Part shown: in pieces, positions 3,593 through 40,085 of the stretch | How the letters are laid out: each line of letters opens with the position of its first letter | Position numbering within the stretch: position 1 is the stretch's first letter | Assembly: GCA_032117235.1 (NCBI GenBank) | Contig: JAULZW010000001.1 | Coordinates: 10,762 to 74,761, forward strand | Length of the DNA: 64,000 nucleotides | Direction of reading: 5' to 3' | Origin: Minisyncoccota bacterium | GTDB taxonomy: Bacteria > Patescibacteriota > Minisyncoccia > SW-4-49-11 | Position numbers and translations under genes: made by a program | Notes under the pieces: generated by a model | Told to the model about the DNA's origin: nothing | The model's database searches: none | What the model saw: only the letters and a program-made list of their open reading frames with translations

Positions 3593-6154
3593 ATGCCTTC
3601 TCCGATGATGACTCAATTCTATGAATTAAAACAGGCATATCCTAATGATATTTTGTTTTTTCGCCTAGGGGATTTTTATGAAATGTTTGGAGAAGATGCG
3701 AAATTAGCAGCTCCTATCCTTGATTTAGTGTTAACTGCTCGCAAGAATACGATAGATGGAAATATTCCAATGTGTGGAGTGCCTTATCATTCTTCAGCTC
3801 AATATATCAAAAAGCTGATTCGGGCAGGATATTCAGTGGCTATATGTGAGCAACAAGGATCAGCTAAGGATTCTAAGGGTTTGGTGACGAGAAAAGTGGT
3901 TAAAGTTATCACTCCAGGGACGGCTCTGCTGGATATAGAAGCTACCGAATCAAGGTATATAGCTAGTGTTTATACTCACAAAAACAATATATATCTAGCT
4001 TTAGCCGATTTGGGGACAGGTCTTTTTGAGGTTGGTAAATTTATGGAGTCAGAACTTAAGGATGTCTTGCAATCTAAACAAGTCAAAGAGATTATACTCT
4101 CAGAAAATAGTGAGTTATTTGAAAAACTCCAAAAATTAAATATTAGAATTGTGGCTGAATCTAAATGGAGTTTTCAATTAGAGCGTGCGCTTGAAGTTTT
4201 GACTAAACATTTTAATGTTAGCAGTATGACTGGCTTTGGTTTTGAGGTTGATGATATGCGATTGTCTCCAGCTGGAGCTTTGCTTGGTTATCTTATTTAT
4301 ACTCAACAGGAGGATTTGAAGCATATTACTAAATTGCAGATTATGACTTTGGATAAATATATGAGACTAGACTCTCAAACTATTCAAAATCTAGAGTTAT
4401 TTTATCTATCAAGAGCTAGTCAAAAGGGCAAAAGTTTTTATCAAGCTATTAATTATACTAGAAATCCTCTGGGTTCAAGAATGTTGAAAAACTGGATATT
4501 AGCTCCATTATTAGATGTCAAAGCTATTCAGGCTCGTCAAGAGCATATTCAAAATTATATAGACACTCCTACTAAGATTACAGAAACCAGAGACTTATTA
4601 GCTCAGATTGCAGATATAGAGCGAGTTTTGGCGAGGCTGTCTAGTAATGTGGGTGGTCCTAGAGATATGCTGTTATTATCTAAAAGTTTTGAGTATATTG
4701 CAGGAATTCTAAAACTAGATATAGCAAATTATACTAAATTAGCTCAAAAAGCTTTGTTAAAACTTGAGCCTTTAAAAGTTCAATTGCAAAAAGCTTTAAG
4801 AGATAATGTCCCAATTCTAGCTAGGGATGGTGGTTTTGTGGCTAAAGGGTATCGGGATGATATAGATGAATTATTAAATTTAAGTCAAGGGGGTAAAGAG
4901 TGGTTGTTGGAATTACAATCTCAGGAACAAGCTCGCACAGGTATAAATTCTCTCAAAGTAAAATATAATAAGGTATTTGGCTATTATATAGAGATTAGTA
5001 ATGCCTATAAAAATCAAGTTTTACCAGATAATTATATTAAAAAACAGACTCTAGCTAATGCGGAGCGATATATTACCCCAGAATTAAAAGAGTTTGAAGA
5101 AAAAATTCTCAGTTCAGAAGCTGAGTTACTAGGTTTAGAGCAAATTGTTTTTGAGGAGTTAAGACAGGCAATTATAGCTGAGTCAGAGCAAATTTATACA
5201 ATTTCCCAAACTATTGCCTATATTGATTGTATACAATCAGGAGCTAAATTAGCCATAGATTGGAATTATAATCGTCCTAAAATTATTAAAAATCAAAATC
5301 TGTATATAGAAGCTGGCCGACATCCAGTACTGGAGCAGTTAATTACTGAATATATACCCAATGATTGTAAATTAGCTGAACCAGATCATTCTCTTATGTT
5401 AATCACGGGACCGAATATGGGAGGTAAGTCTACCTATATTCGTCAAGTGGCTTTGATTGTGCTTTTGGCTCAAATGGGATATTTTGTGCCGGCTAATAGT
5501 GCCAAGATTGGGGTGGCGGACAGGATTTTTACTAGAGTAGGAGCCTCAGATAATATGAGTGAGGGACAGAGTACTTTTATGGTAGAGATGTTGGAGGTAG
5601 CTAATATTTTACATAATGCCAGTAAGTCTAGCTTGATTATTTTAGATGAGGTTGGTCGGGGCACTTCTACTTATGATGGAATGAGTATAGCCAAGGCTTT
5701 GATTGAATATATTCATAATACTATTAGAGCCAGAACTCTCTTTGCCACTCATTATCACGAATTATTAAGTCTGGAAGGAGATTTTGAAGGGGTGGTGAAT
5801 TATCAGGTTATAATTCAAGAGTCTAATGAGAGTATTCTCTTTTTACACCGTATAGAACAAGGTGGCGCTGATAAAAGCTATGGGATAGCTATTGCCAAAT
5901 TAGCTGGATTTCCTGCAGATGTGTTAGAATTAGCTAAGAGAGCTCTTATACAATATGAGCAAAAAAAATCTCAATTGTCATTTTTAGAAATCCCAATTAT
6001 AGCTAATAGTAATAATCTAAAACAAGAAGTCAACCCACATATAAAGCAGTATCAGAAGCTCTTACAAGATATACATTCCAATAATCTGAATGACTTAACT
6101 CCAATGCAGGCTTTAGCTATATTAGATGAATTACAAAAAAACAATCCACTATGA
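3593..6154 (+). CDS. mutS: DNA mismatch repair protein MutS.
   Basis: 853 aa. The N-terminus MTQFYELKQAYPNDILFFRLGDFYEMFGEDA and the Walker A motif GPNMGGKST are classic MutS. Confidence 0.95.
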   Translation: MPSPMMTQFYELKQAYPNDILFFRLGDFYEMFGEDAKLAAPILDLVLTARKNTIDGNIPMCGVPYHSSAQYIKKLIRAGYSVAICEQQGSAKDSKGLVTRKVVKVITPGTALLDIEATESRYIASVYTHKNNIYLALADLGTGLFEVGKFMESELKDVLQSKQVKEIILSENSELFEKLQKLNIRIVAESKWSFQLERALEVLTKHFNVSSMTGFGFEVDDMRLSPAGALLGYLIYTQQEDLKHITKLQIMTLDKYMRLDSQTIQNLELFYLSRASQKGKSFYQAINYTRNPLGSRMLKNWILAPLLDVKAIQARQEHIQNYIDTPTKITETRDLLAQIADIERVLARLSSNVGGPRDMLLLSKSFEYIAGILKLDIANYTKLAQKALLKLEPLKVQLQKALRDNVPILARDGGFVAKGYRDDIDELLNLSQGGKEWLLELQSQEQARTGINSLKVKYNKVFGYYIEISNAYKNQVLPDNYIKKQTLANAERYITPELKEFEEKILSSEAELLGLEQIVFEELRQAIIAESEQIYTISQTIAYIDCIQSGAKLAIDWNYNRPKIIKNQNLYIEAGRHPVLEQLITEYIPNDCKLAEPDHSLMLITGPNMGGKSTYIRQVALIVLLAQMGYFVPANSAKIGVADRIFTRVGASDNMSEGQSTFMVEMLEVANILHNASKSSLIILDEVGRGTSTYDGMSIAKALIEYIHNTIRARTLFATHYHELLSLEGDFEGVVNYQVIIQESNESILFLHRIEQGGADKSYGIAIAKLAGFPADVLELAKRALIQYEQKKSQLSFLEIPIIANSNNLKQEVNPHIKQYQKLLQDIHSNNLNDLTPMQALAILDELQKNNPL

Positions 6155-13053: not shown

Positions 13054-13139
13054 TGGTGCCGAGGAGAGGACTCGAACCTCCACATCATTAAGATACATGC
13101 TCCTAAGGCATGCGTGTCTACCAATTCCACCACCTCGGC
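13054..13139 (-). tRNA. tRNA-Leu, anticodon TAG, class II. The CCA is encoded.
   Basis: Manual fold of the reverse complement. Acceptor GCCGAGG/CCTCGGC, anticodon stem-loop CATGC-CTTAGGA-GCATG, long variable arm, T-loop TTCGAGT. Confidence 0.88.
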
Positions 13140-24720: not shown

Positions 24721-24793
24721 TGGGTGCAGGTGGGCTCGAACCACCGACCAAAGGCTTAAAAGGCCTCTGCTCTACCAACTGAGCTATGCACCC
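24721..24793 (-). tRNA. tRNA-Lys, anticodon TTT. The 3' CCA is not encoded.
   Basis: Manual fold of the reverse complement. Acceptor GGGTGCA/TGCACCC, anticodon stem-loop GAGGC-CTTTTAA-GCCTT, T-arm GGTGG-TTCGAGC-CCACC, discriminator A. The next bases are CAT rather than CCA. Confidence 0.85.
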
Positions 24794-26856: not shown

Positions 26857-26944
26857 TGGTGGGCAGAGTAGGACTCGCACCTACGTAGCCTGAAAAGGCG
26901 TCGGTTTTACAGACCGATGCGTTTGACTGCTCCGCCATCTGCCC
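26857..26944 (-). tRNA. tRNA-Tyr, anticodon GTA, class II. The CCA is encoded.
   Basis: The reverse complement GGGCAGATGGCGGAGCAGTC... folds with anticodon stem-loop TCGGT-CTGTAAA-ACCGA, a long variable arm, and T-arm GGTGC-GAGTCCT... ending in CCA. Confidence 0.88.
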
Positions 26945-26977: not shown

Positions 26978-27053
26978 TGGAGCCGAAAAGAGGATTTGAA
27001 CCCCCGACCTACCGCTTACAAGGCGGTTGCTCTACCAGCTGAGCTATTTCGGC
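26978..27053 (-). tRNA. tRNA-Thr, anticodon TGT. The CCA is encoded.
   Basis: The reverse complement GCCGAAATAGCTCAGCTGGTAGAGCA... folds with anticodon stem-loop CCGC-CTTGTAA-GCGG, T-loop TTCAAAT, acceptor GCCGAAA/TTTCGGC, and discriminator T followed by CCA. Confidence 0.82.
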
Positions 27054-27507: not shown

Positions 27508-28932
27508 CTAATTGTTAGGAGGTGGGGGAGTAGTCTCAGGAGTGGGAGTATCGAGTTTATCTATATACTCTAAATCATCATCTGATATTCCTAGTTGATC
27601 TAATATATAAATATGTCTACTGTTGCTAGGGTCGTATTTCCCAACAGAAAACCTCATCATTTCATCAGGATTATTTTTTATTACATCCCAAACCCCAATA
27701 TTTCCCTCTCTATATATCATATCCTTTGTAAAACAAACACCTGCAGTTTTACAATCAGTTCCTCTAAAAGTTCTAATACATCTATTCCAAGCATTATTTT
27801 TAGAACTAATACTGGCTTCTTCGGGTGATTTTTTTGCTCCAAGAGCTTTAAAATAAAAATATTTTTCTAATACCTCATAAGTTTCTCTAAAATCTCTTTT
27901 TTTACCATCTAACCCCATTGCTAAACTTATAGCTAAATGTCCTTCTAAGCCAGAAAAATCATTTACAGAAGATTTGAGAACTTGTTCTCTCATTGTAGCA
28001 ACCCCTTCCTCTCCTTGTTCATAACGATCTAAACCTAGACTCAATAATCTTAATTGAGTATTTTCACCATTAACTCTTCTAGCAACATGAGTCCCCACTT
28101 CATGTACGAGTAAAGATTGTAGCCTTGTTTTGGATGGAAGCACTCTAGATTCAGGTATAGTAACATTTTTCTGCTCCTGATTTGTACTAATTGATGTACT
28201 ATTATCTACTGTAATTACCTCCCAACCATCTGCATTTGACTCTCTTAATGCTTCTTCAAAAGCATTTCTTATAGAATTAGAATCATACTTACCATCTTCT
28301 AGGGGTATATTTAAAATACTATCAAATTCTTGTTTAGTTTTTACTCTTGCTAATTCTACAGTATCATCGGAAGGAGTAGATATATCTGGATTAGTGGTTT
28401 CAATATCCAATTCACCTAGTGTTTGCATTAATATCTCGGCAGATGCCTTAATGTCTGGATTATCAGAATTTAAAGCCTTACTTATTTTGTTATTTAGATT
28501 ATACATAGTATATTTAAAAACTTCATCTGAGGGTTTTCCATAAATATACTTAGAATATCTTTCAAATCTTCGCATATCTCCATTATGTGAAGATTTCATC
28601 ATTCTTAACTCTGCAATTTTTTCATTAATTTTCCAGCTATATACATTACGAACTATCTCATTAGTCTCCTGCTCTAAAATATCTTGTTTTAACTGCATTA
28701 AGCTAGACTCAATATTGTTAATTGTTTCTATATCTAGCAAAGGATAGTCTAAATCAGGATTTTCTATTTCTCCACTAAGGAAAGCTTCCTTTTGAGTGTT
28801 TCTAGCACCTGCTTCTCCATTGAAGTACTCATAAGCTTGAAAAGATCCAATTTCTTCAAATCTATTATACCAATTATCATCGAGAGATTCAGACTCGAGT
28901 TTTTGTGATGTTTGGTGTTCTAGATTTGTCAT
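27508..28932 (-). CDS. Putative Zn-metallopeptidase of the DUF1704 / QEGLA-motif family (HExxH).
   Basis: 474 aa containing LLVHEVGTHVARRVNGE (HExxH) followed by ...YEQGEEGVATMREQ (QEGLA-like). This family is known to sit beside RimK-like ATP-grasp ligases. Confidence 0.5.
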   Translation of the reverse strand: MTNLEHQTSQKLESESLDDNWYNRFEEIGSFQAYEYFNGEAGARNTQKEAFLSGEIENPDLDYPLLDIETINNIESSLMQLKQDILEQETNEIVRNVYSWKINEKIAELRMMKSSHNGDMRRFERYSKYIYGKPSDEVFKYTMYNLNNKISKALNSDNPDIKASAEILMQTLGELDIETTNPDISTPSDDTVELARVKTKQEFDSILNIPLEDGKYDSNSIRNAFEEALRESNADGWEVITVDNSTSISTNQEQKNVTIPESRVLPSKTRLQSLLVHEVGTHVARRVNGENTQLRLLSLGLDRYEQGEEGVATMREQVLKSSVNDFSGLEGHLAISLAMGLDGKKRDFRETYEVLEKYFYFKALGAKKSPEEASISSKNNAWNRCIRTFRGTDCKTAGVCFTKDMIYREGNIGVWDVIKNNPDEMMRFSVGKYDPSNSRHIYILDQLGISDDDLEYIDKLDTPTPETTPPPPNN

Positions 28933-28939
28933 AATACAT

Positions 28940-29932
28940 TTAATTTATACTATATAATTTCTTCATTCCAGATAATAGTATAAGTGCTAATATATTTCTA
29001 TGCTTGCAGAAGTTTAAATCTTCAAAGGATCCATGTTGGTAAAATCTTGAAGGGATATAGCCATATTGTTTGGAAAAATACTTGGAGACAATGTTTTGAT
29101 ATTTTTCTAAAGTTTCTTTTTTAGAATTCATATTTAACCCCCAACAGACTCCAATTTCTGCAATAATGTCTACCTCATTAGTTGAAAATATTTTTGCTTC
29201 CATATCTTCAAACTCCCCCCAAATCCAATCAAATGTATTGTTAGATATATGGTGATTATAAAATTGACTTTCCCCTATAATTATATGCGTTAGTGTGTAC
29301 AAATAATTAAGAAATACTATAGGATCTTCTATCTCACGATCAGTGTAATTGTCTTTAATTATTTTAAATAGTAATGTTTCATCTTCTTCTCTATAAGGAG
29401 AGTTGGGTAAAAATTTTGTTAGATATAAACTATTTACTATTTGTACAGGTGCAAATAGTACTGACTCTGAGCTATTTTCTATAAAAGATATTATTTTAGG
29501 GTATGTTTCGTGTATATAGTTTTGAGTTTGGGTATATATTGTTGGATTTAAATCTTTAATTAGGTTGATTCTATTTAAATATTCAAAGTCAGTAATAACT
29601 TTTTTAAATAAAATTAAATCATGTATCTTATCATTTTTATTGATATAAACATTTCTCTTTAGTTTTTTTGGTACTTGCTCAGATAGAGGATATAGTTTGG
29701 GGATTTCCTTACTAATGATTGATCTTGAAAAATTATGCTTTATGTAGTAATCTAAATTAGATATATTGGTCTCTACAGCATAATCTTTTAATATCTGTAG
29801 ATATTTATATTCACCATAAATTCTATATAAACGAAATAGAAGAAATATTTTCCCTGAGTTTGGTAACTTAGGAATAAGGGATAATAATGTTTTCTTAATA
29901 GTCTCGGCTTCAGTATGATATGCTTTTTTCAT
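28940..29932 (-). CDS. Hypothetical protein (ORFan) inside the ATP-grasp cluster.
   Basis: 330-aa ORF co-directional and tightly spaced with its neighbours. No recognisable motif. Confidence 0.5.
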   Translation of the reverse strand: MKKAYHTEAETIKKTLLSLIPKLPNSGKIFLLFRLYRIYGEYKYLQILKDYAVETNISNLDYYIKHNFSRSIISKEIPKLYPLSEQVPKKLKRNVYINKNDKIHDLILFKKVITDFEYLNRINLIKDLNPTIYTQTQNYIHETYPKIISFIENSSESVLFAPVQIVNSLYLTKFLPNSPYREEDETLLFKIIKDNYTDREIEDPIVFLNYLYTLTHIIIGESQFYNHHISNNTFDWIWGEFEDMEAKIFSTNEVDIIAEIGVCWGLNMNSKKETLEKYQNIVSKYFSKQYGYIPSRFYQHGSFEDLNFCKHRNILALILLSGMKKLYSIN

Positions 29933-29940
29933 AAAAACTA

Positions 29941-30852
29941 TTATTTGGTACTCATTAAATAATTAACAATATCAAAAGCTGTATCAGAATTGTGTGCTAA
30001 GTCAAAGCCGCTAAAGTGAGGAAATTGATTTACCTCAATAACTAGGGGCTCATTATTTGCAGTAATCAATATATCTACACCAGCATATTCAAGGTCTAAT
30101 TCTCTACATACATTTATAGCTAAATTTTTTATTTCGTCTGAATAGTTATAAGCTTTACCCTTATTCCCCTGAGATATATTTGTTGTTATGGAATCAGAAC
30201 TCTTTATTCTTTGCAAAGCCCCTAATACTTTATCGCCGAGTACTATTATGCGAAGATCAAACTCAATAGGAATATATTGCTGATATATTACTTCTTCAGG
30301 ATTGTATAGATTAAGATATTCTTTTAAATCACTCTCTGATTCCATTAACTCAACACCTTTACCAAGAGATCCACTTTTAGGCTTTATTATAAATCTATTA
30401 TCATTTAATTTACTACATATATTTTCATATGATTGATATCCTCTAGAAAAAAGAGTTTTAATAATAGGAATATTGGGGTTCTTAGATAAATATGTATACT
30501 GTATTAATTTATCATAAGAAGGATATTTTAGTAGATGTGTCCTATTTAGCTGACGAGTATTATCTGAAACATATTTATCCCAATATAAGGGAGGGATACT
30601 ATATAGATTTCTATTTATAACAATATCATATGGTTTATTTAATAGGTTAGAGTCGGGGAGTGATAACAACTCTGATTTAGTTGATATAACATCTGCCTTT
30701 ATTGAAAATTTTTGGAATGCATTTAATAATTTTCTAATTGAATTATTGTTTTCTGAAAGTGTTGTAATGAGTGCATTCATATTGTGAGACTTATATAGTA
30801 GATAGACAAGAATGTGTTTATTCATTATAATAAATACATTATAACATATCAA
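29941..30852 (-). CDS. RimK-like ATP-grasp amidoligase (alpha-L-glutamate-ligase family).
   Basis: IIKPKSGSLGKGVELMES...FDLRIIVLGDKVLGALQRIK...TTNISQGNKGKAYNYSDEIKNLAINVCRELDLEYAGVDILITANNEPLVIEVNQFP matches the RimK ATP-grasp motifs. Confidence 0.75.
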   Translation of the reverse strand: MICYNVFIIMNKHILVYLLYKSHNMNALITTLSENNNSIRKLLNAFQKFSIKADVISTKSELLSLPDSNLLNKPYDIVINRNLYSIPPLYWDKYVSDNTRQLNRTHLLKYPSYDKLIQYTYLSKNPNIPIIKTLFSRGYQSYENICSKLNDNRFIIKPKSGSLGKGVELMESESDLKEYLNLYNPEEVIYQQYIPIEFDLRIIVLGDKVLGALQRIKSSDSITTNISQGNKGKAYNYSDEIKNLAINVCRELDLEYAGVDILITANNEPLVIEVNQFPHFSGFDLAHNSDTAFDIVNYLMSTK

Positions 30853-30860
30853 GTCGCTCT

Positions 30861-31835
30861 ATGGAATTAAGTATTTTTCTCAGACCAATTATTGAAGAAG
30901 CAGAAAGTAGAAATATACATTGTTATGTTTTTTCAGATGTTAGTAAAAATTATGCGGTTTTAAGATATAATGATCATGAGGAGTTTATCAACAATACATT
31001 GATAGATAATATAGGTGCAGCTACTAATTCAATGTTAAAAAATAAATACCTCCAATCAGTGTTACTGAGTCAAAAAGGATATAGTACCCCTAAGACTCAA
31101 ACAGTGTATTTAGAGAAGTCCAAGAGAGATGAATTTATCCAACAATTTAATCAATTTCCCTGTGTGGTCAAGCCATTAGATAATTATGGAGGGAAGGGAA
31201 TTACTGTAAATATTACAAACCATAGTGATTTAGAACAGGCAATAGAGTTGGCTTGTGGTATGAGCAATAGATCTAGATATAAAGATAGATGTATAGTACA
31301 GGAAATGCTTCAAGGAGAAGAGTATAGAATTTTAGTAATTGGCAATAAAGATGTATTCTTAGTCAAGAGAACCCCTTTTCAAGTTATAGGAGATGGTAAA
31401 CACTCAATACAAGAGTTGATTCAAATTTATAATGAAAATACAATTAATAGTATAAGGAAGGTAGAAATAGGCTCTAGTATAAAGCATATATTACAAGAAA
31501 AATCTCTAGCATTAGATTATATACCTCAAGATAAAGAAATTATCAAGTTAAGTTATAAAGCCAATTCTCATGATGGGGGATCTTCTCAGGAACTGACTGA
31601 TTTTTTACCAGAAGGACTGAAGCAATTTGCAATTAGACTATCCTTAGATTTTAAATTACCAGTTGTAGGAATTGATATTATAACTTCTAATCTTGTCAAT
31701 CTAAATCCATACATTCTGGAGCTCAATATAAATCCAGGGTTAACAATACATAATAACCCAACATTTGGAGTACCAACTAAGCCTCAAAAAGCTATTATTG
31801 ATCTTTTATTCCCAGAGACAAAAAAATTTAAATAA
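30861..31835 (+). CDS. ATP-grasp domain ligase, cyanophycin-synthetase-N-domain/RimK-like. Paralog 1.
   Basis: CVVKPLDNYGGKGITVNI...EYRILVIGNKDVFLVKRTPFQVIGDGKHSIQELI...ANSHDGGSSQELT...VVGIDIITSN...LELNINPGL. Confidence 0.7.
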   Translation: MELSIFLRPIIEEAESRNIHCYVFSDVSKNYAVLRYNDHEEFINNTLIDNIGAATNSMLKNKYLQSVLLSQKGYSTPKTQTVYLEKSKRDEFIQQFNQFPCVVKPLDNYGGKGITVNITNHSDLEQAIELACGMSNRSRYKDRCIVQEMLQGEEYRILVIGNKDVFLVKRTPFQVIGDGKHSIQELIQIYNENTINSIRKVEIGSSIKHILQEKSLALDYIPQDKEIIKLSYKANSHDGGSSQELTDFLPEGLKQFAIRLSLDFKLPVVGIDIITSNLVNLNPYILELNINPGLTIHNNPTFGVPTKPQKAIIDLLFPETKKFK

Positions 31836-31847
31836 TTATACCGCTAT

Positions 31848-32822
31848 ATGAAATTGAGTATCTTTCTCAGACCAATTATTGAAGAAGCAGAAAGTAGGGG
31901 TATAGATGTATCTTTTTTTTCTGAATTTCGTACAAGGTTTACAATATTATCATATGAGGGACATACAGAGTTTATAAGAAATACATTAACAAATCATGTA
32001 GGTTCGGTTACTAGTTTAATGTTAAAAAATAAATACTTTCAATCAGTTTTATTGAGTCAAAAAGGATATAATACTCCCAAGACTCAAATAGTGTATGTAG
32101 AGAAGTCTAAGAAAGATAAATTTATCCAAAATTTTAATCAATTTCCCTGTGTGGTTAAGCCTTTAGATAACTATGGTGGAAAAGGTATTACTGTAAATGT
32201 TACAAATTATACTGATTTAGAAAAAGCAATTGAACTTGCTTGTGGTATGAGTATTAAATATAAAGATAAATGTATAGTACAGGAAATGGTTTATGGATCT
32301 GAAGAATATCGAGTGTTGGTAATTGGGAATAAAGATGTGTTTTTAGTTAAAAGGACTCCATTTAGAGTTATTGGAGATGGAAAACATTCAATTCAAGAAT
32401 TGATTAAAATATATAATGATAATGTGGTTAAAGTAGACAAAACAAGATATGTTCAGATAGGAGAAAGTATAATGAATATCTTACAAGAAAAGTCTCTAAA
32501 ATTAGATTATATCCCTAAAGATAAAGAAATTATAAAACTAAGCTATAAAGCTAATTCACATGATGGTGGGTCATCAGAGGAGATGACTAAATTTTTGCCA
32601 GATACATTAAAACAATTTGCTATTAAATTATCTCTAGATTTTAAGTTGCCAATTGTGGGCATTGATATTATAACTTCGGATATAAACAATCCTAACCAAT
32701 GTGTTTTAGAGTTAAATCTTACTCCAGGATTGAATATACATGTAGCTCCGACATTTGGAACACCAACTAAGCCTCAAAAGGCTATTATAGATCTTCTATT
32801 TCCAGAAACCAAATCGATATAG
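31848..32822 (+). CDS. ATP-grasp domain ligase, paralog 2. A tandem duplicate of 30861..31835.
   Basis: Same length (324 aa) and about three-quarters identical to paralog 1. The first dozen residues are nearly identical and there is a long identical DNA stretch at the 5' end. Confidence 0.7.
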   Translation: MKLSIFLRPIIEEAESRGIDVSFFSEFRTRFTILSYEGHTEFIRNTLTNHVGSVTSLMLKNKYFQSVLLSQKGYNTPKTQIVYVEKSKKDKFIQNFNQFPCVVKPLDNYGGKGITVNVTNYTDLEKAIELACGMSIKYKDKCIVQEMVYGSEEYRVLVIGNKDVFLVKRTPFRVIGDGKHSIQELIKIYNDNVVKVDKTRYVQIGESIMNILQEKSLKLDYIPKDKEIIKLSYKANSHDGGSSEEMTKFLPDTLKQFAIKLSLDFKLPIVGIDIITSDINNPNQCVLELNLTPGLNIHVAPTFGTPTKPQKAIIDLLFPETKSI

Positions 32823-32824
32823 TA

Positions 32825-34252
32825 TTATTTCCTCGGATCAATAATAAATCTTTTTAAATCCTGTTTCCCTAATAAAAAAAGGTATTTTAAATGAGATCGA
32901 TTTACTATTGAACATGCAATTTCACTCATCTCATCTCCAATTTTTACTGGGATTTTTATAAAGGGTCTAACTGTATATCCGTTTCCAGCCTTTATAATAG
33001 CAACTTTTTTGAGGAGATGCGGAGTATCTTGTGCCTTTAAGTTAATATTTATTGTATCAGTTAATTTATTTAGAGCATTATATTCTATATCCTCCGGTAT
33101 ATTCAAAGCTTTAAATTCTTTTAATACTTCTCCGTAGCCAAGTTTAATGAGAAGAGCTTCGTCTATACTGGAGGAGTCTGCCCCCGTATCCACCTTGGCT
33201 TCTATAGTTTGTTTTTGATTGTCTTTGCCAAATAAGGTGATTTCCTCAATCAAACCTATAACTTGTCGCCCAGTAATTTCCTCGATTTCTTCTTCAATTT
33301 CTCCTCCAAATAAATCTTTTGCGAGTCGAATAGCTCTTTTTACCGTTTTTACTTTAAGTCCTTTTACTTTTTGTAATCTTTCTTTGAGTGGGGCGAGATT
33401 GGCAATTTGAATAGCAAGTCCTGGTCGGGCATTAGCTTCCAAGACTACTGGTCCAGCATCGCGGTCTAGGGCGATATCTACTCCTGTAAAGCCTAGATTT
33501 GTCACATCAGCAGTGCGAATGGCTATTTCTAAAATTGTATTCCAATATGGTATTCTAATTCCAGCTAAATTGATTTTGGTTCCTGGTATGGTGTCTATGA
33601 ACTTCTCTCGCATAATGGCATTAGTGGTTACTCCAGTGGCCATATCTATTCCCACTCCAATTCCTCCTTGATGTAGATTAGCCTTTCCATCTGATTCTTT
33701 GGTCGGAATTCTAATCATTGCCATTACGGGAATACGATTGAATACAATGACACGAATATCAGGTATACCTTTATAGGCTAAATGCTTGAAAGATTTATTG
33801 AGTTTAATTCGCTCTTCAAAAAAAGCTATATCAGGGCTATTAGTACGTGAATAGGTTCCATCAAGAATATTGCTAATATGATTATGTATCATTGTCTCAC
33901 TAAGTTTAACTCCTTTGGTTTTGACCCATTGTCTTTCTCCGTCGGTAGTTTTCTTTTTATGTTCTCCAAAAATTACCACAATTCCTTCTCCTCCAAATCC
34001 AGAAGTAGGCTTCAATACAAAGCTTTTTGGTAATTTATTATAATCAAAATTATTTAATTTCTCATAAGACCTTACCGAAGCGATTAGTTTTGGGGTCGGT
34101 ATATTATTTTGCTGTAAAACTTTCTTAAATTTGATTTTATTATCTACTAATTTGACCCATTTACGATAGTTATAAGGCTTGATAAAGATAAGGTTACGGG
34201 CATTCATCCCGAGTATTTTTTGACTAAATACGAATGCTTCTAGCCAATTCAT
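32825..34252 (-). CDS. Fusion protein: N-terminal ATP-grasp ligase (alpha-L-glutamate-ligase-related, sugar-transfer-associated type) plus a C-terminal retropepsin-like aspartic protease domain (RimB / putative ATP-dependent zinc protease family).
   Basis: The N-terminal part has ...FVLKPTSGFGGEGIVVI..., ...ANLHQGGIGVGIDMATG... and ...GVDIALDRDAGPVVLEANARPG. The C-terminal part has ...KVDTGADSSSIDEALL... and ...LLGKQDLKRFIIDP, the D-T-G-A signature. Confidence 0.7.
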   Translation of the reverse strand: MNWLEAFVFSQKILGMNARNLIFIKPYNYRKWVKLVDNKIKFKKVLQQNNIPTPKLIASVRSYEKLNNFDYNKLPKSFVLKPTSGFGGEGIVVIFGEHKKKTTDGERQWVKTKGVKLSETMIHNHISNILDGTYSRTNSPDIAFFEERIKLNKSFKHLAYKGIPDIRVIVFNRIPVMAMIRIPTKESDGKANLHQGGIGVGIDMATGVTTNAIMREKFIDTIPGTKINLAGIRIPYWNTILEIAIRTADVTNLGFTGVDIALDRDAGPVVLEANARPGLAIQIANLAPLKERLQKVKGLKVKTVKRAIRLAKDLFGGEIEEEIEEITGRQVIGLIEEITLFGKDNQKQTIEAKVDTGADSSSIDEALLIKLGYGEVLKEFKALNIPEDIEYNALNKLTDTININLKAQDTPHLLKKVAIIKAGNGYTVRPFIKIPVKIGDEMSEIACSIVNRSHLKYLFLLGKQDLKRFIIDPRK

Positions 34253-34255
34253 AGT

Positions 34256-34975
34256 TTATTGATTGCTAATGATTTTACGGAATCGGATATATTCAGAGAT
34301 GCGGAGTCCTTCATAGCGCCCAATTAATATAATTCCCGCAAATACAATCAAAATTACCCATGGATTATAGAAAACTAAATCTCGTAGCCGAGTAGTGGTC
34401 ATAATTAAGTTTCCAATTGAAGCTAGAATCAGGGTTTCTAAGGATAGGATGACAGCGGTACGATAACCTTTTTCCATTTGAGCATTGATGAACTTCTCTA
34501 CCAAGGTAATAATAATCAAAATCTGGTAAATTGAGGCTTGTACAAACATTGTGCTGTCTGAAAATATACCCCAAACCAAACTCAAAAACATAGATAAAGC
34601 TGTAATTGATAGTATTAAAGCCATTTTCGGTAAATATAAAATACGAACTTTGCGAAGTAGAAATCTGACTACTGAAGCCACTAGAAGTGAAACTACAAAG
34701 ACGCTAACTCCATATTTGAAGCCAATTTCAGTCAAAGCAAATGTTATAATTAGTGGTGTATAAATACCAAAAGCTTTAATTCCCACAATTTGTCGGGCGG
34801 CTACGATAAATCCTGCCATAATCGGGAACATTAATAGAATGTCTATTGTTTCACGTGGCACATCATTTCTTAGAAGGTAATCAAAGAATATATCCATATA
34901 CTTATTAAAACTAATTGAGATTATTGTATTATTTTGATATAGTATAACATAACAATATATTTTGACTAGTGGCAA
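34256..34975 (-). CDS. Seven-transmembrane membrane protein of the kind associated with RimK-like ATP-grasp systems (7TM_transglut-like). The true start is probably the internal Met at about 34897.
   Basis: 239 aa with about seven hydrophobic helices. The listed start overlaps the divergent sufB start. Confidence 0.5.
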   Translation of the reverse strand: MPLVKIYCYVILYQNNTIISISFNKYMDIFFDYLLRNDVPRETIDILLMFPIMAGFIVAARQIVGIKAFGIYTPLIITFALTEIGFKYGVSVFVVSLLVASVVRFLLRKVRILYLPKMALILSITALSMFLSLVWGIFSDSTMFVQASIYQILIIITLVEKFINAQMEKGYRTAVILSLETLILASIGNLIMTTTRLRDLVFYNPWVILIVFAGIILIGRYEGLRISEYIRFRKIISNQ

Positions 34976-36359
34976 ATTTATGGACCGATCCGTATACGAT
35001 AATTATAGCTTACATAAGGGAAAATTTCAAACTCAACCTGGATTAACTCGAGAGGTAGTTGAAGAGATTTCTAAACAAAAAAATGAGCCATCTTGGATGT
35101 TGAAAAAACGGCTCAAAGCCTTTGAATTATATCAGCAAACTGCTTTACCGAATTGGGGTCCTAGTTTGGATGGATTAGATTTGGAGCAAATTATTTATTT
35201 TAGTAGGCCAGATGCAGATGAATCTAAGACTTGGGATGATGTGCCAAAGGATATACGAGACACTTTTGATAAACTTGGTATTCCAGAAGCCGAAAAACAG
35301 GCTCTAGGAGGTGTGGGAGCTCAATATGACTCAGATATGATATATCATAATCTCAAGCAAGACTTAAAAGATAAAGGGGTTATATTCGAGAATATGGATA
35401 CCGCATTACAGGAATATCCCGATTTGGTCAAAAAATATTTTATGACTCAATGTATTCCTATCAATGATCATAAATTTATTATGTTACATGCGGCAGTATG
35501 GAGCGGGGGGACATTTATTTATGTGCCAAAGGGGGTAAAAGTAGAATTGCCATTGCAAGCCTATTTTCGGATGAATATGGAGGCTGGAGGGCAATTTGAA
35601 CATACTCTTATTATTGCAGATGAAGGCTCAGAGCTTACCTATATCGAGGGATGCTCTGCTCCAAGATGGAATGTCTCAGCTCTTCATGCAGGAGGAGTGG
35701 AAATATTTGTGCATAAGGGTGCTACAGTTAAATATATTAGTATTGAAAATTGGAGTAAAAATACCTATAATCTCAATACCAAAAGGGCTCTCGTGGATGC
35801 TTATGGTACTATTGAGTGGCTAAATGGGAATATGGGAAGTGGTGTGACAATGTTATATCCTTGTAGTATATTGAGGGGAGAATATGCTCGCTCAGATAGT
35901 CTCGGGATAGCCTTTGCAGGAGAGGGGCAAGAGCAAGATACAGGCTCAAAGGTAATACATGCAGCCCCTTATACTAAATCCACAATTAGTGCTAAAAGTA
36001 TTTCTCAAGATAATGGAGTGTCATCATATAGGGGTTTAGTTAAAATAACTCCCAAAGCTATTGGTAGTGAATCTCATATTGTCTGTGATGCTCTCCTAAT
36101 GAATGATGGGGCTAAATCAGATACTTATCCAGTGATGCAAGTAGAGACTAGTGAGGCTCAAATTGGGCATGAAGCTCGGGTAGGGCGGGTAGGGTATGAG
36201 GAAATATTTTATTTAATGAGTAGAGGGATGAGCGAAGCGGAGGCCAGGAAAATGATAGTAAATGGTTTTATAGAGCCGGTAGTAAAAGCCTTGCCTCTCG
36301 AATATGCAATTGAGCTAAATCGCCTGATTGAACTTGAAATTATAGATTCAGCAATATAA
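34962..36359 (+). CDS. sufB: Fe-S cluster assembly protein SufB. The true start may be Met-7 at 34980.
   Basis: 465 aa with conserved SufB core and C-terminal regions. Confidence 0.9.
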   Translation: MTSGKFMDRSVYDNYSLHKGKFQTQPGLTREVVEEISKQKNEPSWMLKKRLKAFELYQQTALPNWGPSLDGLDLEQIIYFSRPDADESKTWDDVPKDIRDTFDKLGIPEAEKQALGGVGAQYDSDMIYHNLKQDLKDKGVIFENMDTALQEYPDLVKKYFMTQCIPINDHKFIMLHAAVWSGGTFIYVPKGVKVELPLQAYFRMNMEAGGQFEHTLIIADEGSELTYIEGCSAPRWNVSALHAGGVEIFVHKGATVKYISIENWSKNTYNLNTKRALVDAYGTIEWLNGNMGSGVTMLYPCSILRGEYARSDSLGIAFAGEGQEQDTGSKVIHAAPYTKSTISAKSISQDNGVSSYRGLVKITPKAIGSESHIVCDALLMNDGAKSDTYPVMQVETSEAQIGHEARVGRVGYEEIFYLMSRGMSEAEARKMIVNGFIEPVVKALPLEYAIELNRLIELEIIDSAI

Positions 36360-37094: not shown

Positions 37095-38459
37095 GTGTTT
37101 GAAGGTGAAAATATAAATAAAGGCAATGAGTTAGCTCATGAAATAGAAGAAAGTTCGACAAAAGATATTAGAAGATTTACTCGTTCTTATTCTTCGGTTG
37201 AGAGAACAGCTAAAGCTCAAGAATTAAGAGGTATCCCAAAAGATCAAAGAGAAGAAGAACTTGAAAGTTTTTATAAAGAACAAGAAGCAATAAGGGTAGA
37301 ATTCTTAGAAACTTTAGACGAGAGACAGGTTGAAGATATCATGAATCAGTACGATGTAATTTTTACTCATGGAATACCCTTAGACTCAATGAAAAACACA
37401 TCACATAATAATACCGTAATTGATACAGAGAGTATAAAACTAGAAACAAAAATAAAATTAATTTTAGGTTTTCAGCCAACAATTTCTGCTTGTGTTATAA
37501 AAGTTTCTGAACAAAGTCCAAATGCTCATTATTATAAATTTGGTTTAATGATTGGTAGAGGAACAGTTATGTTGGCTCATAATCGAGATACTGCAACTGT
37601 TGCTGAAAATATGTATTCTAGAAGATTAAAAGATGGTGAGTATAATAAAGATGGAGAAAAAAATTCATATATAAATGGTAAAAATTATAGTTTTTTTCCT
37701 GAAAATATGGTAAATCATAGTATACAAACCAATATACAAGAAAATATAAGACAAGCTATCGAGGAACCAGTTGGTGGTAAGTCTGGAGATGCTAGAAATG
37801 AAGTGGTAATTGAGAATCCAGATGCTATTGGTTTTTACATAGATCTTAACACTGAAATAGGTGATGTAGAATTAATTCAAATTGTAAAAATTGCTAGGAA
37901 TGTTGGGTTGCCAATTTTTGGCTTAAAAAATGGACGAATTTTTTCTTTACAAGACAATGGTCAGGAAGAAATTAATCTTGATGAATTGCATATATCTGAA
38001 GAGTTAACAGAACAAAAAAGATTAAAATATATTGAGGATACAATTCAGGACAATGTTTTTGTTGGTGGAAAAATCCCAATAGAGGCAGAAAGGAGAATAA
38101 GTTCATTAAAGTCTAAAGTAAAAGAAATATCGGGAATAAAACAAGAGTCTTTAGTACAACAAGGATCAGAGGAATTATATCCAGATTTTGAGTATTTAGA
38201 TGGTAACTATAATATGTTTTACAATGCAGATTTAATGTTAAAAGGTACTCATCTTAGATATGACTCAATACATAAAAATGGGAATGATATAGTTAGTTTT
38301 TTTACTCAGATGGGTGTAAGAGAATCTGCTATGACAAAAGTAAAAACACTTTTTGAAAACAAAGACCTTTCAGAATGTAGAAAGTTAATAGATAGTTTTT
38401 TAAATAAATTTTATGAAGCAAAAAAATTATTAGCTCAATGGAAGCAATCTAAAGATTAA
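37095..38459 (+). CDS. Hypothetical acidic protein (ORFan), inserted within the suf operon.
   Basis: 454-aa ORF. No recognisable motif. Confidence 0.5.
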   Translation: MFEGENINKGNELAHEIEESSTKDIRRFTRSYSSVERTAKAQELRGIPKDQREEELESFYKEQEAIRVEFLETLDERQVEDIMNQYDVIFTHGIPLDSMKNTSHNNTVIDTESIKLETKIKLILGFQPTISACVIKVSEQSPNAHYYKFGLMIGRGTVMLAHNRDTATVAENMYSRRLKDGEYNKDGEKNSYINGKNYSFFPENMVNHSIQTNIQENIRQAIEEPVGGKSGDARNEVVIENPDAIGFYIDLNTEIGDVELIQIVKIARNVGLPIFGLKNGRIFSLQDNGQEEINLDELHISEELTEQKRLKYIEDTIQDNVFVGGKIPIEAERRISSLKSKVKEISGIKQESLVQQGSEELYPDFEYLDGNYNMFYNADLMLKGTHLRYDSIHKNGNDIVSFFTQMGVRESAMTKVKTLFENKDLSECRKLIDSFLNKFYEAKKLLAQWKQSKD

Positions 38460-38837: not shown

Positions 38838-40085
38838 TTATTTTATAGATATTCCCAAAACTGTTTGGGCTGCAATTTGAAAATGCAATCGATTAAACTT
38901 CTCAGCTTGAGGATCTCCTGATGGATGATATTCTCTAGCTAGAAATCCAACTTTCTCTGGACTAACTGACATCTTGCTATTTCTATAACCTGCAGACGCA
39001 CGAGCCATTTCACTTGCTTGAGTTTTGATCTGTATTTTGTGAATTCTTAAAATTTGTGACAAATCTATATCCTTTTCTTTTAAATCAGCATCAATATCAT
39101 CTAATTTTATATTACGATTCACTCTAATAATATCTCCCAAAATATGGTCTCTAGGGTTTATAAGAGAATTTTCAACCTGTTTCATCATATGATCTAATAA
39201 AGTTACTCTATACTCTTCTATCACTTTATATATTGCTAATTGAATCTCCTGATCAGTAATAGAATCTACTAATTCAGGATTGAGAGTAATTGCTATAGTG
39301 TCAGCTTTGTGCCGGGTATCCCCAATTGAAAATTTAGGTATGTCTATGGTAGCTAGCACTCCTGGAACTTGGGATAATTCTTCAGTGACTATTCTTTCTG
39401 ATTCCGCGCCTTTTAAATCATCTTGAGTAGTTGTTTCTTCCCCTTCAGTTAAAAACCTAGCATTCCCTTGAGTTATTTTACTGGACCTTTCTTTATATCT
39501 AGCAAATTCTGGGTTTTCGGTATCTGGGATTATTAAATCACTAAGATATTCTATTGACATCTCTCTTCCCTCAGCAAATCCAAAGCCATATTTTTTATCA
39601 ATTCCAGTTTCAGCTATTATCTCTAAAATCTTGGTATAGTAAATATCTATAATAGCCTTAATATCTGTTCTGGCAAGACTAGATTCTGATTCATCTAAAG
39701 AATTTAAAAGTGTCTGATATGTACGATATCTTTCTAATAAAAATTCCACAGAATCATCTTCTAATTCTAAACTAGTTTCTAGATGGTAGGAGTTTAATTC
39801 TTTACAGACATCATATAATTTTTTAGATGATTGAATCTCTTCTAATTTTTGTTTCAAGACATGGACTTGTCTTTGAAGTCTGGGATTAGAAGATTGCTTT
39901 TCAGAGGAGGTTATAAGTTGTTGTAATGCCTCAGATTCCTTTTCTTTTTGAAAGGATATATTATCTAAATCTTGTCTTAAATCTCCACCCCTTCCCTCAG
40001 CGGTTGAAGTATATATCTCATCTATAATTTCCGTCAATGAATATTCAGAAAATAGTTTTTCTTGTATGGGTCTTAGGGTTTCCAT
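38838..40085 (-). CDS. Hypothetical acidic, coiled-coil-rich protein (ORFan), inserted within the suf operon.
   Basis: 415-aa ORF. No recognisable motif. Confidence 0.5.
   Translation of the reverse strand: METLRPIQEKLFSEYSLTEIIDEIYTSTAEGRGGDLRQDLDNISFQKEKESEALQQLITSSEKQSSNPRLQRQVHVLKQKLEEIQSSKKLYDVCKELNSYHLETSLELEDDSVEFLLERYRTYQTLLNSLDESESSLARTDIKAIIDIYYTKILEIIAETGIDKKYGFGFAEGREMSIEYLSDLIIPDTENPEFARYKERSSKITQGNARFLTEGEETTTQDDLKGAESERIVTEELSQVPGVLATIDIPKFSIGDTRHKADTIAITLNPELVDSITDQEIQLAIYKVIEEYRVTLLDHMMKQVENSLINPRDHILGDIIRVNRNIKLDDIDADLKEKDIDLSQILRIHKIQIKTQASEMARASAGYRNSKMSVSPEKVGFLAREYHPSGDPQAEKFNRLHFQIAAQTVLGISIK

Follow-up and report, generated by a model that had tools for sequence, protein, structure and literature searches.

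A conserved gene of Patescibacteria encodes an RloC-type ATP-grasp ligase and an RloA-type retropepsin in one polypeptide

Introduction

What does a bacterium do with a ligase and a protease joined in one polypeptide, when enzymes of such kinds are known elsewhere as separate proteins with opposing activities, and to which known system does such a protein belong? The question is raised by a gene in a 64,000-nucleotide (nt) stretch of a Minisyncoccota bacterium (Patescibacteriota; GenBank assembly GCA_032117235.1, contig JAULZW010000001.1, positions 10,762 to 74,761 of the forward strand), hereafter the window. A reading of the DNA letters alone (the sequence-only reading) had noticed there a single polypeptide fusing an ATP-grasp ligase to a retropepsin-type protease, had named RimK and RimB of Pseudomonas as the separate counterparts, and had proposed coupled add/remove chemistry on one substrate.

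We report that the fusion is real and conserved, and that its kinship lies with the products of rloABC. In Pseudomonas this system, described in 2025, has effects on osmotic tolerance, biofilm formation, cell shape, and resistance to beta-lactams; RloB is stated to be 96% proteobacterial, and the locus has been called an adaptation of Gammaproteobacteria (PMC12239564).

Results

One uninterrupted reading frame encodes both enzymes

The whole fusion gene occupies 32825..34252 on the minus strand, where an open reading frame (ORF) with an ATG start encodes an RloC-type ATP-grasp ligase, a linker, and an RloA-type retropepsin in 475 uninterrupted amino acids (aa), with no hidden stop or frameshift. 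The coordinates given by the sequence-only reading were exact; the strand is the minus strand, the plus-strand translation of this interval being full of stops, and a plus-strand reading was rejected. All the motifs quoted earlier stand where they were expected: the ATP-grasp motifs GFGGEGIVVI (residues 85-94), LHQGGIGVGIDM (193-204), and GVDIALD...LEANARPG (257-278), the protease signature DTGADSS (355-361), and the C-terminal LLGKQDLKRFIIDP (460-473).

Domain searches agree with this layout. In Pfam, PF14397 (ATPgrasp_ST) covers residues 19-297 with E 5e-70, and PF05618, a 'Zn_protease' family of RimB/RloA-like proteins, covers 413-469 (E 4e-9); NCBIfam places TIGR02291 (alpha-L-glutamate ligase-like) at 11-300 (287.3 bits, E 1.2e-85) and the RloA1/2/3 retropepsin models on approximately 327-473. 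These matches are far beyond chance, and they make positive both of the alignments, to TIGR02291 and PF05618, that had been suggested as a check. The protein thus delimited comprises an ATP-grasp ligase domain of RloC/TIGR02291 type (33353..34222, minus strand; residues ~11-300), an acidic inter-domain linker of 16 residues, LFGGEIEEEIEEITGR (33266..33313, minus strand; residues 314-329), and an RloA-like, retropepsin-fold aspartic protease domain (32828..33265, minus strand; residues 330-475). An AlphaFold2 model of the full-length protein folds the two domains confidently (predicted local distance difference test, pLDDT, 82.9). We found no hydrophobic segment, signal peptide, or transmembrane segment along the whole length of the protein, so the protease domain must, as far as its sequence tells, be cytoplasmic.

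The fusion might have been an artifact of annotation or assembly, in which a sequencing error had merged two neighboring genes. Searched against 5.8 billion proteins, the protein retrieved 7600 relatives; nearly all of the best 120 (more than 110 database homologues) share with it a length of 464-480 aa and both Pfam domains. In species-representative genomes, our scan yielded at least 599 related loci. For conservation counts we fetched 80 species-representative loci, of which 69 encode the full-length fused protein, which answers the earlier question of whether related genomes conserve the fusion. Because these homologues share length and domains, and 69 genomes carry the same single ORF, the fusion is not a mis-joined gene pair; since over 100 assemblies, produced independently by many studies and from many lineages, contain the same ORF with its length and linker conserved, we give an artifact next to no credence. 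The fusion is a real single gene, joining an RloC-type ligase to an RloA-type retropepsin.

The fused loci come from Moranbacteria, Paceibacteria, Dojkabacteria/WS6, Kerfeldbacteria, Shapirobacteria, Levyibacteria, and other metagenome-assembled genomes (MAGs) of Patescibacteria; some of these MAGs bear labels such as 'uncultured Bdellovibrionales' and 'Gammaproteobacteria', probably as placeholder names. The match of true Gammaproteobacteria (Methylococcus capsulatus, for example) is confined to residues ~13-315, which is the unfused form. We also built a neighbor-joining tree from the ligase domain; in it, the unfused sequences of Gammaproteobacteria were monophyletic in 49 of 50 bootstraps and equidistant from two fused clades (41.5% identity to each, and 45.5% between the fused clades); the outgroup, 26% identical, did not fix the root. 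Public databases name the homologues automatically as 'alpha-L-glutamate ligase-like protein' or 'sugar-transfer associated ATP-grasp domain-containing protein', and in the literature we searched, whose coverage excludes the 2009 amidoligase paper defining PF14397 and PF14402, we found no account of this Rlo-type fusion or of a link between the rlo system and Patescibacteria.

When the protease domain alone was used as query, the short 'stand-alone' matches starting LFGGE... proved to be truncated gene calls; P0164 and P0171, of the same subtype, appear to be true cytosolic proteases that stand alone. RimBK-type proteins (P0197, P0255) form a separate class in the same database. In one Patescibacteria MAG (L026), the protease domain occurs a second time as a separate copy at ~4347-4784, directly downstream of the fused gene.

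The ligase half is of RloC type

The TIGR02291 match spans profile positions 10-294 of 317, and its score is slightly under the curated cutoff of 314.2 bits; the unmatched part of the profile is the C-terminal tail, whose place the linker takes in the fusion. The ligase half shares 46% identity with RloC of Methylococcus (E 1e-88). It reaches 26.5 bits on the RimK equivalog PRK10446, against a cutoff of 331, and 52 on TIGR00768, against a cutoff of 143. A Foldseek search with the whole-protein model returned only ATP-grasp matches, the best being RimK, ArgX, and CphA1, and the ligase domain is about 19% identical to RimK in the structural alignments. The ATP-grasp residues K81, D259, E272, and N274 are present in 69 of 69 fused homologues and R276 in 68; judged by these positions, the nucleotide- and Mg-binding residues of the domain are intact. 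RloC of P. aeruginosa is cytosolic (PMC12239564).

The protease half retains the catalytic motif and the arginines of RloA

We compared the protease half with proteins of known structure by sequence profile and by predicted fold. Searched against PDB sequences, its profile placed RloA (9g58, E 4e-12) and RloA2 (9g59, E 4.5e-10) at the top, followed by Lpg0085 (2pma, E 5e-8) and then Ddi1; the best single-sequence match was Lpg0085 (E 7e-5). An AlphaFold model of the domain on its own (pLDDT 86.5; predicted template modeling score, pTM, 0.80) retrieved HIV-1 protease, 9g58, 2pma, 9g59, and Ddi1 in Foldseek with E values of ~2-5e-5, and these structural matches appear only with the separate domain model, not in the whole-protein search. 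Among hidden Markov models (HMMs), those of RloA1 (31-36 bits), RloA3 (28-33), and RloA2 (27-32) scored above that of RimB (NF052261; 18.3-22.6). All 18 sampled family members match the RloA1/2/3 models weakly (best E 4e-14), and 13 of the 18 match RimB more weakly still.

The catalytic DTGA motif of the retropepsin active site (D355-A358; 33179..33190, minus strand) aligns with the DTGA of 2pma, 9g58, and Methylococcus RloA. The catalytic aspartate, whose absence would have spoken against the sequence-only reading, is invariant: D355, T356, and G357 occur in 69 of 69 fused homologues, and A358 in 68. Beyond the flap-tip Gly425, a further segment (32897..32968, minus strand) begins at R429 in an RP motif and ends at R452 in an xRS motif. 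These two arginines, conserved in 67 and 68 of the 69, respectively, align with R94 and R117 of crystal chain 9g58 (the RP and DRS arginines) and with the arginines of the same motifs in Methylococcus RloA, and their spacing of 23 residues is that of R114 and R137 of RloA. RloA1-3 of P. aeruginosa are secreted retropepsins with a basic substrate channel that cut stretches of at least eight glutamates; D48, R114, and R137 are essential, the two arginines bind poly-Glu beside the catalytic dyad, and their mutation abolishes both cleavage of poly-Glu (polyE) and complementation (PMC12239564). The match of R429 and R452 to these residues supports a retained specificity for acidic chains in the fusion protease. 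Taken with the ligase residues, this conservation supports selection on both active sites, and sequence and models together predict that both domains are intact and catalytically competent. Two fused homologues, L057 (DTGN) and L064 (DTS), keep the domain with a degenerate catalytic motif, and the protease may have been inactivated in these lineages.

An acidic linker characterizes one clade of fusions

The linker consensus, LFGGE[IV]EEE[IVL]E[ED]I[ST]G[RK], shows almost no variation across 116 sequences that are ~50% identical overall, with E318, E320, E321, E322, and E324 each at least 95% conserved. The linker has pLDDT below 50 in the full-length model and is predicted to be flexible; unfused RloC of Methylococcus, which ends ...AKTVANRF, has no such segment. 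This near-invariance is limited to the clade of Moranbacteria/Dojkabacteria type. In the Shapirobacteria/Levyibacteria-type clade the linker position holds a mixed-charge LFGEKFxEKVxxKEKxK, and an acidic linker was rejected as a universal feature of the fusion, 17 of the 69 fused homologues having a neutral or basic one.

A 7TM protein is the constant partner of the ligase

Directly upstream of the fusion, with its stop codon 3 nt before the fusion ATG, lies the gene for a seven-transmembrane (7TM) membrane protein corresponding to the C-terminal 7TM half of RloB (34256..34897, minus strand; 213 aa from the methionine chosen by the gene caller). The ORF extends to a TTG at 34975, giving a protein of 213-239 aa against 510 aa for RloB; the protein is called as 213 aa in the relative L086, and homologues in relatives have 213-219 aa. 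It matches PF14402 (7TM_transglut; E 7e-24, 85 bits), positions 311-506 of the 508 in the NCBIfam RloB model NF052267 (71.8 bits, against a cutoff of 900), and residues 318-510 of Methylococcus RloB (31% identity, E 2e-18). RloB is an inactive transglutaminase fused to a 7TM module (PMC12239564), and the N-terminal periplasmic transglutaminase domain is missing from the Patescibacteria protein.

In 76 of the 80 related loci, gammaproteobacterial ones included, a 7TM gene immediately precedes the ligase gene, whether the ligase is fused or unfused. A K/R-rich motif in the C-terminal tail of the 7TM protein, GRYxGLRxxEYxRFR, is conserved from Patescibacteria to Methylococcus RloB (wider consensus G[KR][WY]xGLRxxE[YF]xRF[RK]), and this basic cytoplasmic tail is a candidate docking site for the ligase. 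Its charge does not co-vary with that of the linker, the tail being basic in both clades of fusions. In close relatives (79-92% identity), the pair of 7TM gene and fusion stays beside sufBD while the downstream cassette varies or is absent; because the pair is constant, we regard it as the core, and the extra ligases and peptidase described below as accessories. Patescibacteria are not known to have an outer membrane, and the joint loss of both periplasm-facing features, the secretion of the protease and the transglutaminase domain, fits an organism without a periplasm.

The right comparator of the fusion, on sequence grounds, is therefore rloABC and not RimK/RimB, since TIGR02291 far outscores RimK (287 vs 26.5 bits on PRK10446), the RloA models outscore RimB (31-36 vs 18-23 bits), and an RloB-type 7TM gene lies upstream. 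Membership of the fusion in RimK/RimB was rejected on these HMM scores, and the pairing proposed by the sequence-only reading gives way to RloC/RloA.

The 7TM gene, taken to its longest ORF (34256-34975, minus strand), and sufB (34962-36359, plus strand) are divergent, with ~80 nt between the called starts and an overlap between the longest ORFs. A sigma-70-like match of 11/12 lies on the minus strand at 35030-35002, inside the 5' end of sufB. The promoter scan found 15 promoter-like sites against 11.3 +/- 3.0 expected, which is not above chance in AT-rich DNA, and the terminator scan found no terminators.

Accessory peptide ligases and a peptidase-like gene accompany the pair

In the window, two tandem ATP-grasp ligases resembling the G domain of cyanophycin synthetase (CphA-like; 30861-31835 and 31848-32822, plus strand; 74% identical), a RimK-family ATP-grasp ligase (29941..30852, minus strand; TIGR00768 135.8 bits, PF08443 E 1.5e-28), a DUF3541 protein (28940..29932, minus strand; PF12060 E 7e-23), and a MATCAP/DUF1704 (QEGLA-family) metallopeptidase-like protein with an HEVGTH motif (27508..28932, minus strand; PF08014 E 2.4e-27, TIGR02421 81 bits) lie together as a variable, probably accessory cassette. 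One to three RimK-family or CphA-like ATP-grasp genes lie downstream of the fusion in about 37 of the 80 loci, and such genes are absent in the P0009 lineage. The CphA-like genes lie downstream on the fusion strand in L008, L020, L022, L024, L025, and others, and on the opposite strand in the window. There, the pair ends 2 nt from the fusion stop (convergent) and starts ~8 nt from the start of the longest RimK-family ORF (divergent); a search for flanking inverted repeats, as a sign of recent inversion of the pair, found none.

A MATCAP-like gene is near the fusion in six loci (L006, L027, L028, L034, L062, and L064), and one protein of 916 aa, P0160, contains ligase, retropepsin, and MATCAP-like domains. 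By the Rosetta-stone argument, this joining supports a place for the MATCAP-like gene at 27508-28932 in the same pathway as the fusion, and its product is probably an accessory eraser. The ORF of L064 has 809 aa, and its C-terminal part matches the MATCAP-like protein. Another composite protein, P0146 (688 aa), adds a C-terminal YdjC-like domain (carbohydrate deacetylase family) to the ligase and retropepsin. The association of several ATP-grasp 'writers' with a MATCAP-like 'eraser' recalls the eukaryotic TTL/MATCAP system of tubulin tails. A DUF3541 gene also follows the RimK-family gene in a 65%-identical relative (L001/L002, 10309-11292), and its product may belong to the accessory cassette.

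Elsewhere in the window, two large ORFs without a Pfam match (37095-38459, plus strand, 454 aa; 38838-40085, minus strand, 415 aa) lie between sufBD and sufS/nifU, a slot that appears to be a variable insertion point in the suf cluster, since close relatives hold different genes there. An Rfam scan of the window at the gathering score found only five tRNA genes (2476-2560, 13057-13139, 24721-24793, 26860-26944, and 26981-27053) and no rRNA.

Discussion

We lean, with a confidence a little above even, toward the view that the fusion is the enzymatic core of a two-gene, Patescibacteria-type rlo system that makes and trims acidic, poly-Glu-like chains at the membrane. Its ligase domain would add alpha-linked glutamate or other acidic residues, driven by ATP, to some acceptor or as free poly-Glu, a chemistry suggested by homology to RimK and by rlo genetics. 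The ligase would work at the membrane, docked on the 7TM protein at its conserved, basic cytoplasmic tail, and oligomerization of the ligase would pair two protease domains into the obligate retropepsin dimer. That dimer would cut acidic chains and so set their length or turnover, as RimB does for RimK. The whole process would take place on the cytoplasmic side, without a periplasm-facing transglutaminase domain, unlike in Gammaproteobacteria; where RimK/CphA-type ligases and a MATCAP-like peptidase lie nearby, they would serve as optional extra writers and erasers of the same pathway.

Functional coupling of ligase and protease is plausible by analogy, because deletion of rloB or rloC suppresses the defects of a triple rloA deletion mutant (PMC12239564), because RimB trims the poly-Glu tails made by RimK and up-regulates the ATPase activity and poly-Glu synthesis of RimK, and because the RimBK hybrid is proteolytically active (PMC11957791). 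The coupled add/remove chemistry on one substrate put forward by the sequence-only reading fits what is known of RimK/RimB and of rloABC genetics and is likewise plausible.

Several observations weigh against the proposed poly-Glu cycle. The protease scores lie far under the equivalog cutoffs (36 bits against 210-280 for NF052262/3/4, with 200 for RimB), and since all of them do, the fusion protease is, by sequence, a distant RloA-like relative and not an orthologue. Ahead of the flap hairpin, the model and the alignment with Methylococcus RloA show ~35 additional residues, a helical insertion absent from RloA; together with the sub-cutoff scores, it means that the specificity of the protease could differ from that of RloA. 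Glutamate as the ligase substrate is assumed by analogy to RimK, and RimBK showed no glutamylation of RpsF (PMC11957791). The inter-domain orientation in the full-length model is uncertain (pTM 0.62). The name that Pfam gives to the ligase family ('sugar-transfer associated'), the glycosyltransferase and penicillin-binding protein (PBP) neighbors in some loci, and the YdjC fusion P0146 hint at a glycan or peptide target in the envelope.

These last hints could be gathered into a different account, in which the fusion is a cell-envelope enzyme: the 7TM protein would handle a glycan, lipid-linked, or peptidoglycan-related precursor, the ligase would attach an amino acid to that precursor, and the protease would mature or recycle a peptide moiety. 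Besides the family name and P0146, which joins both domains to a carbohydrate deacetylase relative, glycosyltransferase, acetyltransferase, and class A PBP genes follow the operon in some loci, and Pseudomonas rlo mutants are beta-lactam sensitive with cell-shape defects (PMC12239564). However, the flanking envelope genes are not conserved, and the neighbors in the window are suf genes and further peptide ligases; the recurrent partners are peptide ligases of RimK and CphA type and the MATCAP-like peptidase, with no sugar enzymes among them, and the protease keeps the poly-Glu-binding arginines. We consider an envelope role unlikely. It is very unlikely, in our estimate, that the protease domain is mainly a non-catalytic module for regulation or oligomerization that activates the ligase, with proteolysis dispensable: RimB binding does raise RimK ATPase and poly-Glu synthesis (PMC11957791), and a few homologues (L057 and L064) keep the domain without its catalytic motif, but the invariance of D355/T356/G357 and near-invariance of R429/R452 across 69 species indicate selection on catalysis and substrate binding.

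The linker invites a further alternative, namely that GGEIEEEIEEITGR is a cis cleavage site or pseudosubstrate, polyprotein-like, so that the retropepsin either frees itself from the ligase, as in Gag-Pol, or stays inhibited by the linker until activated; cleavage would give the ligase a new Glu-rich C-terminus, itself a possible glutamylation acceptor. Conservation of the linker far exceeds what a passive tether would need, and the linker is predicted to be flexible and is missing from unfused RloC; the stand-alone proteases of this subtype (P0164, P0171) begin just past its position, and both RloA and RimB cleave acidic stretches inside a protein as well as at its C-terminus. Yet the 17 fused homologues of Shapirobacteria/Levyibacteria type with a neutral or basic linker keep both the fusion and the catalytic residues. 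RloA, moreover, requires at least eight consecutive glutamates, is blocked by substitutions within the run, and spares DDDDEEEDDD (PMC12239564), whereas the linker holds at most three in a row, broken by Ile. We saw no natural split at the linker in these lineages, the short forms that start within it being truncated gene calls. We judge autoprocessing to be quite improbable. Similarly doubtful is the bolder proposition that the linker is the built-in substrate or pseudosubstrate of a bacterial 'polyprotein' retropepsin and, more broadly, that the two-gene module is the core or ancestral form of rlo. If it were true, the retropepsin would gate or release itself by cleavage in cis or in trans, synthesis and trimming of the RloC product would both occur at the cytoplasmic face of the membrane, and RloA secretion and the RloB transglutaminase domain would be later periplasmic elaborations.

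The locus bears on the rlo system in several ways. It qualifies the published picture of rlo as a gammaproteobacterial adaptation and carries the range of the system far outside Proteobacteria, to bacteria whose genomes are very small and in which an operon that is conserved probably matters. A ligase and protease close enough to be one polypeptide lend support to the idea that RloA-type proteases act on RloC-type products. A system that works without a secreted protease or transglutaminase domain would have as its invariant core the 7TM module, the ligase, and the protease. The recurrent partners and Rosetta-stone fusions, with peptide ligases and a MATCAP-like carboxypeptidase, point to the writing and erasing of peptide tails, and the fused protein is a compact construct for in vitro study of both predicted activities. 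The fusion is a fused, fully cytoplasmic variant of the rloABC stress-tolerance system; it is useful for understanding the rlo mechanism and establishes no new principle, since RimBK already shows a ligase-retropepsin fusion.

How does the Patescibacteria pair compare with what is known? Its closest counterpart is rloABC, in which ligase, 7TM module, and retropepsin are all homologous to the Patescibacteria components and the 7TM gene is likewise directly upstream of the ligase gene. The three genes of rloABC (order rloA-rloB-rloC in Methylococcus) are represented by two in Patescibacteria, B'-(C::A). RloC is a stand-alone, single-domain protein of ~320 aa, whereas the fusion has 475 aa with a C-terminal protease domain. 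RloA is secreted (Methylococcus RloA starts MKLHRIGIAFLLGLVSAVSSAGD), while the fusion protease is cytoplasmic and C-terminal to the ligase, and RloB has a periplasmic transglutaminase-like domain that the Patescibacteria 7TM protein lacks. The helical insertion in the protease, the acidic linker of one clade, the sub-cutoff NCBIfam scores, and the Patescibacteria host further set the fusion apart.

The RimBK hybrid, known from Desulfotalea psychrophila (DP2392), Flavobacteriales, and Rhodobacterales, has been purified, and its protease domain cuts poly-Glu tails (PMC11957791). It, too, joins a retropepsin of the RimB/RloA family to a RimK-superfamily ATP-grasp ligase in one cytoplasmic polypeptide, and because it has been published, the fusion that the sequence-only reading rightly recognized is not without precedent. 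In RimBK, however, the protease is N-terminal, the ligase is of RimK type (PF08443), and there is no 7TM gene, whereas the Patescibacteria fusion has the reverse order and a PF14397/TIGR02291 ligase; the two also occur in different taxa. RimK and RimB of Pseudomonas resemble the fusion in the logic of their opposing activities, in which an ATP-grasp ligase writes alpha-poly-Glu and a cytoplasmic retropepsin acts as eraser and activator, but they are separate proteins without a membrane partner, in contrast to one protein with a 7TM partner.

For the protease alone, Lpg0085 of Legionella pneumophila (2pma, DUF785) shares the DTGA, RP, and xRS motifs and the fold; it is a stand-alone protein of 146 aa, as opposed to part of a 475-aa protein. 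Retroviral proteases and the RVP domain of Ddi1 share the fold and the DTG loop (Foldseek E ~1e-5 to 1e-4) and, like the fusion protease, reside inside a larger polypeptide. Sequence kinship with them is undetectable past the active-site loop, and the chemistry of the substrate channel differs, that of the fusion being predicted to be basic and Glu-binding.

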